Virus record (IMG/VR): IMGVR_UViG_3300028888_000002
Length of the DNA: 64,000 nucleotides
DNA from: a virus
Taxonomy: Duplodnaviria > Caudoviricetes
Reading direction: 5' to 3' (one strand)
Below the pieces are notes generated by a model. That model did no database searches and was not told the origin of the DNA. It saw only the letters and a list, made by a program, of their open reading frames with translations. Positions 29,837 to 30,765 of this stretch are shown piece after piece. The translations under genes were made by a program, and so were the position numbers. The stretch's first letter is position 1, and each line of letters starts with the position of its first letter.

Positions 29837-29923
29837 CGGAGCGGGCAGGATTCGGACCTGCGGTGAGCAAGACCCACGGTTCTTTAGCAAAGAACTGCCA
29901 TAGACCAACTAGACGACCGCTCC
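29837..29923 (-). tRNA. tRNA-Ser(GCT)
   Basis: Cloverleaf by eye: GGAGCGG acceptor, GTTCT-TTGCTAA-AGAAC anticodon arm, long variable arm, G73; no CCA. Confidence 0.92.
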
Positions 29924-29934
29924 AAAAATGTTAG

Positions 29935-30017
29935 TGCCGATTGCAGGATTCGGACCTACGAAGACTTGCGTCGGGTGATTTACAGTCACCTGCCTTTGAC
30001 CGCTAGGCTAAATCGGC
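29935..30017 (-). tRNA. tRNA-Tyr(GTA)
   Basis: GGTGA-CTGTAAA-TCACC anticodon arm, long variable arm. Confidence 0.92.
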
Positions 30018-30025
30018 ATTGTTAG

Positions 30026-30099
30026 CTCTACCGCCACGATTCGGACGTGGAACTTCCCGATTAACAGTCGGGCGTTCTACCAGGTTGAACTACGGCAGA
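30026..30099 (-). tRNA. tRNA-Asn(GTT)
   Basis: CCCGA-CTGTTAA-TCGGG anticodon arm; U1-A72, G73. Confidence 0.92.
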
Positions 30100-30106
30100 A
30101 TAATTC

Positions 30107-30180
30107 GGGGAAAGTGTGGGAGTCGGACCCACCTCACACATACCGTGATATGTGCAGTTCACCACGACGCTAAAGTTCCC
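30107..30180 (-). pseudogene. degenerate tRNA-like element (anticodon unassignable)
   Basis: Intact T-arm GTGGG-TCCGACT-CCCAC, mismatched acceptor stem, weak D-arm, no canonical 7-nt anticodon loop. Confidence 0.6.
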
Positions 30181-30193
30181 AAAAATGTTTTCG

Positions 30194-30302
30194 TGGACAC
30201 CCTCCGATTTGAACGGAGCGTTCCGTAATACTTTCGCAGCGTCCTATCCTTTCTTTTGGCGTTTTGCGATACCTTACGGCAGGTCCCGTAGCCACGGTGC
30301 CC
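30194..30302 (-). ncRNA. tRNA-like RNA with Ala identity (G3.U70, A73) and a long hairpin in place of the anticodon arm
   Basis: GGGCACC/GGTGTCC acceptor, CTCCG-TTCAAAT-CGGAG T-arm, CCGTAA/TTACGG helix extended by TCGCA/TGCGA. Confidence 0.75.
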
Positions 30303-30313
30303 AAAATGTTTCG

Positions 30314-30386
30314 TGGAGCGTATCGGACTTGAACCGATGACCTCCCGCTTGCAGGGCGGGCGTTCTACCAACTGAACTAACGTCCC
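30314..30386 (-). tRNA. tRNA-Ala(TGC)
   Basis: CCCGC-CCTGCAA-GCGGG anticodon arm (C33 instead of U33), G3.U70. Confidence 0.9.
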
Positions 30387-30390
30387 ATAG

Positions 30391-30463
30391 TAGTTCCATA
30401 GGGCTTTGAACCCTAGTCTTTAGGTTGAAAACCTAATGTCCTAGACCGCTAGACGATGGAACC
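30391..30463 (-). tRNA. tRNA-Glu(TTC)
   Basis: TTAGG-TTTTCAA-CCTAA anticodon arm. Confidence 0.92.
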
Positions 30464-30475
30464 ATAATTTGTTCG

Positions 30476-30550
30476 TGTGACGGGGTGGATTTGAACCACC
30501 GACACGAGGATTTTCAGTCCCCTGCTCTACCAGGCTGAAGCTACCGCCAC
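30476..30550 (-). tRNA. tRNA-Phe(GAA)
   Basis: GGGGA-CTGAAAA-TCCTC anticodon arm. Confidence 0.92.
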
Positions 30551-30559
30551 ATAAAGGCT

Positions 30560-30592
30560 AAACAAAAAACCACGTTGCTTGTCGCAGCGTGG
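30560..30592 (-). terminator. intrinsic terminator (attenuator) immediately upstream of the tRNA cluster
   Basis: RNA CCACGCUGC-GACAA-GCAACGUGG followed by UUUUUUGUUU. Confidence 0.85.
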
Positions 30593-30626
30593 CTTCCTGT
30601 TTAACCCTTGAAAAACACTTGGAATA

Positions 30627-30713
30627 TCACCACGACTGCGAATACGCAAAATAGGCTTCGGCAAAACTAGCCTCGGCTTCAAAATAAAAGTTATTTGCGT
30701 AATTCTTGTTCAT
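30627..30713 (-). CDS. leader peptide MNKNYANNFYFEAEASFAEAYFAYSQSW (28 aa)
   Basis: Hand-translated (below the ORF-track size cut-off); AGGA RBS 8 nt upstream; 24 of 28 residues are N/Y/A/F/E/S. Confidence 0.85.
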   Translation of the reverse strand: MNKNYANNFYFEAEASFAEAYFAYSQSW

Positions 30714-30736
30714 AGTGATTTTCCTATACGTCGCCT

Positions 30737-30765
30737 AATATAGATTATTCGGGAACCCGTGTCAA
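30737..30765 (-). promoter_or_regulatory. sigma70-like promoter of the leader/tRNA operon (TTGACA-N17-TATATT, no inverted repeat)
   Basis: Plus strand aatata 30737-30742 and tgtcaa 30760-30765. Confidence 0.85.

Follow-up and report, generated by a model that had tools for sequence, protein, structure and literature searches.

A probable multivalent leader-peptide attenuator ahead of a six-tRNA operon in an uncultured ruminant gut phage

Results

We analysed a 64,000 nt stretch of the viral record IMGVR_UViG_3300028888_000002 (hereafter the window), which comes from an uncultured ruminant gut phage of roughly 215 kb, and concentrated on an operon of six tRNA genes that lies behind a short leader open reading frame (ORF) and a predicted intrinsic terminator. 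All features of the operon are read on the minus strand (Table 1). When this strand is followed from 30900 to 29700, the 3' part of a gene of 128 codons, whose stop is at 30786, is succeeded by a promoter, an AGGA ribosome binding site (RBS), a 28-codon ORF, a terminator and then the tRNA genes from tRNA-Phe onward. An earlier note on this DNA, made from its letters, had described these elements, and the promoter, AGGA, ORF, terminator and tRNAs were all found at the same coordinates when the minus strand was re-read.

The pattern CCTTGACA-N15-19-TATWWT occurs at a single site in the whole 64 kb window, compared with a chance expectation of 0. The spacing of the Shine–Dalgarno sequence (SD) resembles that of the next real gene, which has AAGGA 9 nt ahead of an ATG at 29742. 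The terminator stem consists of CCACG-c-UGC paired with GCA-a-CGUGG, with UUUUUUGUUU directly 3' of it. The earlier note had staked its reading on there being no tRNA promoter downstream of the terminator; a promoter scan found no promoter-like site between the terminator and the tRNA genes, where the gap from the U-rich tract to tRNA-Phe is only 13 nt.

Table 1 Features of the leader and tRNA operon in the window. Variants are the nine leader-region variants described in the text; tRNA genes are given with their anticodons.
Feature	Position	Strand	Sequence, basis or remarks
Sigma-70-type promoter	30737-30765	-	TTGACA-N17-TATATT; 11 of 12 positions match
Shine–Dalgarno sequence	30722-30725	-	AGGA; 8 nt ahead of the ATG; same in 9 of 9 variants
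Leader ORF	30627-30713	-	28 codons and stop, MNKNYANNFYFEAEASFAEAYFAYSQSW; ATG at 30713, stop at 30629-30627; ATG and stop kept in all variants
Proposed sensing codons 4-24	30642-30704	-	21 consecutive Asn/Tyr/Ala/Phe/Glu/Ser(AGT) codons; codon count
Helix P1, 5' strand	30710-30724	-	GGAA-a-AUCACUAUGA; covers part of the SD and the AUG
Inner leader hairpin	30643-30701	-	UACGCAAA (30701-30694) / UUUGCGUA (30650-30643); arms invariant in the nine variants
Antiterminator, 5' strand	30613-30641	-	UCGCAG-U-CGUGG (ORF tail), UUCC and UGUUU; folding, co-variation
Helix P1, 3' strand	30621-30635	-	UCGUGGUGAU-a-UUCC; last codons, stop and 3' flank; overlaps the antiterminator strand
Shared strand (region 3)	30582-30602	-	AAACA-GGAA-g-CCACG-C-UGCGA; pairs with the tail, or with the terminator 3' arm and U-tract
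Intrinsic terminator	30556-30592	-	Stem 30592-30570, U6 30569-30564, then GUUU
tRNA-Phe (GAA)	30475-30550	-	ARAGORN and Rfam
tRNA-Glu (UUC)	30390-30463	-	ARAGORN and Rfam
tRNA-Ala (UGC)	30313-30386	-	ARAGORN and Rfam
Two aberrant tRNA-like elements	30100-30312	-	213 nt, between tRNA-Ala and tRNA-Asn
tRNA-Asn (GUU)	30025-30099	-	ARAGORN and Rfam
tRNA-Tyr (GUA)	29934-30017	-	ARAGORN and Rfam
tRNA-Ser (GCU)	29836-29923	-	ARAGORN and Rfam

Codons 4-24 of the leader spell out, without interruption, the amino acids of exactly the six intact tRNAs encoded downstream; this match had been pointed out in the earlier note and holds for 21 of the 21 codons. Asn, Tyr, Ala, Phe, Glu and Ser together make up 0.313 of the residues in 70 long ORFs of the window, which for a run of 21 codons gives a probability (p^21) of 2.5e-11 under the phage composition, or 2.5e-12 when only AGY serine codons are counted. 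The next longest run of the same residues in a six-frame translation of the window is 11 residues long, Ser-rich and of low complexity. Only one of the 38,760 possible six-residue sets covers the leader run, and this is the set encoded downstream. The lone Ser codon of the run was confirmed to be AGT in the window and is AGT in all variants.

As a null for this match we took the best ORF segment upstream of each tRNA block and scored it for the amino acids of that block. The survey comprised 119 unrelated viral contigs with tRNA arrays, cut into 146 blocks of at least 3 tRNAs. The maximum segment score of the window leader was 32.9 bits, compared with 15.0 bits for the best of the 146 cognate blocks. 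All antisense controls remained below 12 bits, and leaders paired with swapped tRNA sets (4,300 pairings) reached a maximum of 18.8 bits. A further 109 blocks, from 70 contigs which share the tRNA-Phe motif, scored at most 11.0 bits, and none of these 70 loci has such a leader. No comparable leader was therefore present among 255 other viral tRNA blocks (≤ 15 bits), and against these control maxima the match between leader and tRNA set is non-random and rare. Two blocks scoring about 15 bits are not convincing: in L134 the ORF probably belongs to the end of a longer gene, and a promoter-like site of its own follows the terminator, and L097 has no clear terminator.

The leader also favours U-ending wobble codons (TTT in 4 of 4 cases, TAT in 3 of 4, and AGT), and the genes of the phage prefer C-ending ones. 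Such U-ending codons, which can be likened to the rare Leu codon used in the leu leader, would make the leader more sensitive than phage messages to the supply of tRNAs with GNN anticodons.

Near-identical DNA (0.78–1.00 of sampled words; 29400-31400) was found in 15 gut sequencing runs from sheep, cattle, goat and pig. As these runs are spread over 12 of the 15 listed studies, the phage is widespread in livestock guts, mainly those of ruminants. Protein and pattern searches located the same locus in viral contigs of about 215 kb and in metagenome contigs, and our comparison set consisted of nine distinct leader-region variants from ruminant metagenomes. DNA and protein searches of GenBank phages returned only tRNA matches and DNA polymerases, the polymerase of this phage being at most 24% identical to that of any GenBank phage. 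Matches to the leader pattern came from close relatives only, and no distant relative with a different tRNA set turned up among them.

The promoter hexamers, SD, ATG, codon core and stop are kept in all nine variants; the promoter motifs CCCCTTGACA and TAATCTATATT are unchanged and the spacer between them varies. Within codons 4-24 we found six synonymous changes, all at third positions (AAT/AAC twice, TTT/TTC, TAT/TAC, GAG/GAA and GCT/GCA), one non-synonymous change that stays within the set (Tyr to Phe, two bases) and one that leaves it (Asn to Ile at codon 4, in the L012 type). The sole indel inside the leader ORF is one whole Phe codon (TTT), and the indels outside the ORF are of 1, 2 or 4 nt. 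The last four residues, which form the tail of the ORF, vary freely (SQSW, ALQW, SVRC, SMQW and SPQW). Synonymous or within-set changes in the core, together with a free tail, are the pattern expected if the core matters as codons and the tail as RNA.

The full leader of the window folds at −68 kcal/mol, with z = −6.4 relative to shuffled controls. In 9 of 9 variants the minimum free energy (MFE) structure consists of the terminator and of a further helix, P1, which goes beyond the first reading of this DNA. The core stems of the terminator range from −10.9 to −16.4 kcal/mol across the variants, and its stem extends into the A-rich and U-rich flanks. When the transcript was cut before the 3' arm of the terminator, the MFE structure in 9 of 9 variants had the ORF tail paired with the terminator 5' arm. 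This antiterminator helix has between −16.6 and −25.4 kcal/mol in the nine variants, and the fraction of shuffled tails which folded as well as the native one was 0.000–0.073. The two alternative folds proposed by the earlier note were thus both obtained, one from the full and the other from the truncated transcript. The complementarity it had seen between the tail (30641-30630) and the arm (30592-30582) is also borne out: the helix is extended by UUCC/GGAA, and in the window type and L011 by UGUUU/AAACA as well. The inner leader hairpin is present as described and may serve as a pause or coupling hairpin.

Positions 30602-30582 are shared by the antiterminator and the terminator, and positions 30641-30621 by P1 and the antiterminator. 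This sharing gives the classical 1:2 / 2:3 / 3:4 logic, in which P1 is, by analogy, the counterpart of the 1:2 helix of the trp model. To represent translation we used a mask for a stalled ribosome with a queue behind it, which hides the RNA starting at the SD and ending 14 nt beyond the A site. In the masked folds an A site no further along than codon 20 leaves the antiterminator free to form (−17 to −33 kcal/mol), and an A site anywhere from codon 22 to the stop abolishes it. Codons 2-20 include all six amino acids, and the effective sensing codons would extend up to about codon 20.

These structures could also be read without any translation. The ORF would then be fortuitous and the region an untranslated 5' leader. 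Its hairpins would have a role in processing or stability, or else form a partial terminator that works constitutively and keeps tRNA output at a fixed level. Such a reading agrees with the strong structure of the region (z = −6.4), and as much of the core is invariant and lies in or near helices, RNA constraints could explain part of its conservation. It fits poorly with a codon run whose chance is about 1e-11 and which has no comparable match in the 255 control blocks or the 4,300 swapped pairings, with an SD and ATG conserved at proper spacing, and with an indel that is whole-codon inside the ORF when those outside are not. It also gives no reason why the variable sites of the core should be mostly third positions, or why the stop codon should lie inside the strand common to P1 and the antiterminator in all variants. 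We consider a fortuitous ORF quite unlikely.

The tail and the terminator 5' arm change together among the variants. The window type has the tail UCGCAG-U-CGUGG and the arm CCACG-C-UGCGA, the L001 type UGCAGUGG and CCACUGCG, L012 UUUGCAGUGG and CCACUGCAAA, L002 UGCGGUG and CACCGCA, and L014 CCGCAGUG and CGCUGCGG. When each tail was paired with each arm, the mean was −16.1 kcal/mol for cognate pairs vs −12.0 kcal/mol for pairs differing in both strands, and the cognate arm was the best or near-best partner of each tail. Two compensatory changes are of special value, since the terminator by itself cannot account for them. In the first, a U:A pair in the window is a C:G pair in L014, and the base of the arm is located in the loop of the terminator. 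In the second, tail A with arm U in L001 (where the terminator partner is G, giving G-U) corresponds to G with C in L002, where the partner is still G. P1 is kept as well: in L002, despite a 4-nt insertion in its 5' strand, as UCAACAC/GUGUUGA, with GUGUUGA replacing GUGGUGA, and in L014 and L012 by matched 1-nt changes on both strands. RNAalifold, run on a MAFFT alignment from tail to arm, recovered the helix and the second compensatory change; the tails of the window type are out of register in this result, and the co-variation is therefore underestimated by the pair counts.

This behaviour of the tail bears on the possibility that the leader encodes a small functional peptide. In that case the hairpin would terminate both the transcript of the peptide and transcripts from the genes upstream, and the tRNAs would come from unregulated read-through. 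A complete small-gene unit of promoter, RBS, ORF and terminator is indeed present, and a short ORF ahead of tRNA genes in Caulobacter phage phiCbK, gp083 (see below), is annotated as a hypothetical protein. A functional peptide is not expected to have its last four residues vary freely in step with the arm of a downstream hairpin, nor to be made solely of the residues of the downstream tRNAs, and the tRNA operon would be left without a promoter of its own. This explanation is highly improbable in our view.

We also compared leaders with the tRNA sets that follow them. Five contigs carry exactly these six tRNAs, with nothing between them or with one extra element (L009), so that the six-tRNA operon is ancestral and the two odd elements of the window are later additions. 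In L002 and L012 the tRNA-Ala and tRNA-Asn genes are replaced by an 830-nt insertion (2894-3725 in L002; same position in L012) of about 30% GC, vs about 48% for the phage, with a gene for an HNH-like endonuclease of 265 residues. It should be noted that this mobile HNH gene now lies behind the putative attenuator in two different leader lineages. The composition of the insertion suggests that the loss of the two tRNAs is recent. The earlier note had expected the leader codons to co-vary with the tRNA set. Within this lineage no such co-variation was seen, the leaders of L002 and L012 being essentially unchanged; given the apparently recent loss, we count this outcome as neutral to mildly negative. 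The test is in any case a weak one, because all the relatives descend from the six-tRNA state. The change of Asn to Ile at codon 4 coincides with the L012 type and is a single event.

Other tRNA genes of these phages lack a leader. The tRNA-Met gene of the window (57398-57472, minus strand) lies 12 nt behind a protein gene, and a tRNA-Leu(CAA) gene found in the relatives G001 and G002 (1500-1584 of L031, minus strand), and lacking in the window, lies 57 nt behind one. The leader therefore belongs to the operon and not to tRNA genes in general.

The expectation of co-variation found some support, in a weaker form, in the unrelated, cultured phage phiCbK (JX100813; 47000-53000 examined). This segment contains two short ORFs, each followed by a rho-independent terminator annotated by the depositors and then by a tRNA block. 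The first ORF, gp083 (2541-2678 of the examined segment), has 45 residues, with 31 of 44 in P/K/L/A/S, including KAASPASLSLAPLA, and its terminator is followed by Pro, Pro, Lys, Lys, Leu (n = 3), Ala, Ser and Ser tRNAs. The second, an unannotated ORF of 32 codons (4342-4440), contains QFVRQIQVV and precedes Phe, Val, Ile, Ile, Val, Gln and Gln tRNAs. The two ORFs match their own blocks with 17.7 and 12.5 bits and the other block with at most 2.2 bits. The order of short ORF, terminator and a tRNA block for the enriched amino acids is therefore the same as in the rumen phage. In contrast, the two phages have no sequence relation, and the match in phiCbK is looser (17.7 and 12.5 vs 32.9 bits), with many out-of-set Thr or Arg residues. 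On the basis of its sequence, phiCbK is a possible weaker and independent analogue, showing a correspondence which the attenuator hypothesis predicts.

The presence of two aberrant elements among the tRNA genes, reported in the earlier note, was confirmed; neither Rfam nor ARAGORN with default settings calls them as tRNAs. With relaxed settings ARAGORN gave one element with a 4-nt anticodon, cacg, in an 8-nt loop, and another with acceptor and T arms and a 40-nt insert in the anticodon arm. The first could be a decayed tRNA or one of the quadruplet or frameshift type. Both elements are missing from L001, L008, L010 and L014, and L009 has its one extra element.

A search of 29700-30900 against Rfam (E ≤ 1) gave only the six tRNAs above the gathering score, so that neither a T-box (RF00230) nor any other cis-regulatory family of Rfam was retained; three chance-level matches to unrelated families were far below threshold. 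Contigs from the metatranscriptome runs X4, X16, X17 and X18 covered 29400-31400 at a depth of 2–7, too shallow to show transcript starts, ends or levels and without bearing on read-through; a high depth over tRNA-Phe came from other organisms.

A second promoter-like site, TTGGCA-N18-TATATT (29774-29803, minus strand), lies directly after tRNA-Ser and before a 93-codon gene starting at 29742, and no terminator is evident 3' of the tRNA array. The 128-aa protein encoded upstream of the promoter had no relatives among the viral contigs searched. Every long ORF of the window is on the minus strand. These include an 894-aa family-A DNA polymerase (60728-63412) with a weak N-terminal match to the uracil-DNA-glycosylase superfamily, near which lie a gp32-like gene (55158-56717) and a RecA/UvsX-like gene (53775-55091).

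Discussion

We consider it likely that a multivalent, ribosome-mediated leader-peptide transcription attenuator of the trp/his/ilv type gates the six-tRNA operon of this phage. The trp/his/ilv-type architecture named in the earlier note is supported by the folding, by the comparison of nine variants and by the controls. Every sequence-level feature that characterises this class of attenuator was found at the locus. A short ORF with its own RBS lies directly downstream of a promoter and upstream of the tRNA genes. It is enriched in codons for the amino acids of the regulated tRNAs (21 of 21 core codons; 32.9 bits vs a null maximum of 18.8 bits). Between it and the tRNAs lies a terminator predicted by its sequence, with no promoter after it. 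An antiterminator excludes this terminator through a strand that the ribosome can cover, and an upstream 1:2 helix, P1, would hide the antiterminator strand when there is no translation (present in the MFE structure of 9 of 9 variants). In silico, the attenuator is well supported by conservation, co-variation and the controls; translation of the leader, function of the terminator in the host, the direction of the regulation and its physiological trigger are inferred.

The phage would thus probably make its six tRNAs only when ribosomes read their codons slowly. In the mechanism we propose, transcription would begin at the conserved promoter and a ribosome would load on the emerging leader. If decoding is fast, the ribosome would reach codons 22-28 or the stop and cover the tail of the ORF. 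With the tail covered there is no pairing with the 5' arm and hence the terminator would form, so that RNA polymerase would halt 13 nt before tRNA-Phe. A shortage of any one of the six aminoacyl-tRNAs would stall the ribosome at codons 2-20, and the stalled ribosome, or a second one queued behind it, would cover the RBS/AUG strand and leave the tail free. The free tail would then pair with the 5' arm as soon as this has been made (−17 to −25 kcal/mol), pre-empting the terminator, and the tRNAs would be transcribed. On an untranslated leader the RBS/AUG strand and the tail would form P1 and the terminator would form. The circuit would respond as an OR-gate to six codon families, those of Asn, Tyr, Ala, Phe, Glu and Ser (AGY), and as the products of the operon would relieve the stall, it would constitute a negative feedback. 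The trigger put forward in the earlier note, cleavage by host anticodon nucleases, would link the element to host defence, but it is speculative and one of several candidates; depletion of host tRNAs or the codon demand of the phage itself could also act as triggers.

Several points weigh against an attenuator and should be considered together. Translation, termination and read-through are deduced here from sequence and folding. The nine variants are all close relatives and represent 4–5 independent lineages, and the leaders of L002 and L012 have retained their Ala and Asn codons after losing the corresponding tRNAs, so that the family shows no adjustment of leader to tRNA set. Of the six Ala codons in the leader, three are GCC, which tRNA-Ala(UGC) reads poorly in some bacteria. 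Stalls at codons 10-20 leave the RBS/AUG strand open unless a second ribosome queues, and P1 could then win. Finally, when the full transcript is folded at equilibrium under a single ribosome mask, the terminator results in every state tried but one (L009, A site at codon 3), and P1 is closed around the ribosome in these folds; with a stricter mask, the lowest-energy fold of the window keeps the helix of tail and arm with the A site at codon 14. As the equilibrium folds mostly give the terminator, the switch would be mainly kinetic and depend on the order of synthesis, as in trp. Single-mask folds at equilibrium are uninformative for such a switch and were for this reason replaced by folds of the truncated transcript and with the queue mask.

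The same folds leave room for a leader that is translated and gates the terminator but reports general translation or coupling, its codon composition having another cause such as a nascent-peptide effect. P1 makes termination the default without translation, so that the device does sense translation, and the equilibrium folds alone give no tRNA-specific switching. What this explanation leaves unaccounted for is the run of 21 consecutive codons from exactly the six amino acids encoded downstream, the contrast between a core with synonymous and within-set changes and a free tail, and the Ser codon AGT in all variants. We regard it as unlikely.

The closest parallels to the proposed attenuator are the multivalent attenuators of enterobacteria, namely the ilvGMEDA leader with its Ile, Val and Leu codons and the thr leader with Thr and Ile codons. 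In these, too, a promoter-proximal short ORF is rich in the codons of several amino acids, the 1:2, 2:3 and 3:4 helices are mutually exclusive, a ribosome finishing at the stop masks the antiterminator strand, and the response to scarce aminoacyl-tRNAs is of the OR type. The phage element differs in that it regulates tRNAs and not biosynthetic enzymes, so that the species sensed is also the product, in sensing six amino acids rather than two or three, and in using the RBS/AUG itself as strand 1; it is also phage-borne and has no sequence homology to these leaders. With the trp, his, leu, pheA and pheM leaders it shares the principle that the position of the ribosome on regulatory codons chooses between terminator and antiterminator. 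The pheST (pheM) leader places Phe-tRNA synthetase, a gene of the translation apparatus, under attenuation, which shows that this kind of control can extend to the decoding machinery. However, each of these leaders responds to one amino acid and has protein-coding genes as its target, and to our knowledge none of them controls tRNA genes. T-boxes likewise couple tRNA status to read-through into genes of the decoding pathway via a competing terminator and antiterminator. In a T-box a single uncharged tRNA is bound directly and independently of translation, whereas the phage element has an ORF with an RBS and would sense six specificities.

The trp/his/ilv-type logic is known, and the phage element departs from it in having tRNA genes as the target, in its six inputs, in the RBS/AUG that serves as strand 1 and in being carried by a phage. 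Full-text searches of the literature turned up no account of tRNA genes controlled by leader-peptide attenuation. Such genes are usually regarded as constitutive or controlled by growth rate, and those of phages are usually discussed in terms of codon usage or of escape from tRNA-targeting defences. Taking the rumen lineage and phiCbK together, we lean towards the view that phages have independently adapted the leader-peptide attenuator as a demand sensor for their own tRNA genes, which would make it a general layer of phage translational autonomy that has so far gone undescribed.

As the promoter, RBS and terminator are of the ordinary bacterial type, the device should be testable in Escherichia coli even though the host is uncultured. 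If the proposed mechanism is true, attenuation would be extended to RNA-gene targets and to an OR gate with six inputs, and the leader would provide a compact natural sensor of tRNA availability which could be moved into reporters. It would also offer a testable handle on why phages carry particular sets of tRNAs. For the phage itself, it would mean that the speed of decoding is measured directly and tRNAs are supplied on demand with built-in feedback.

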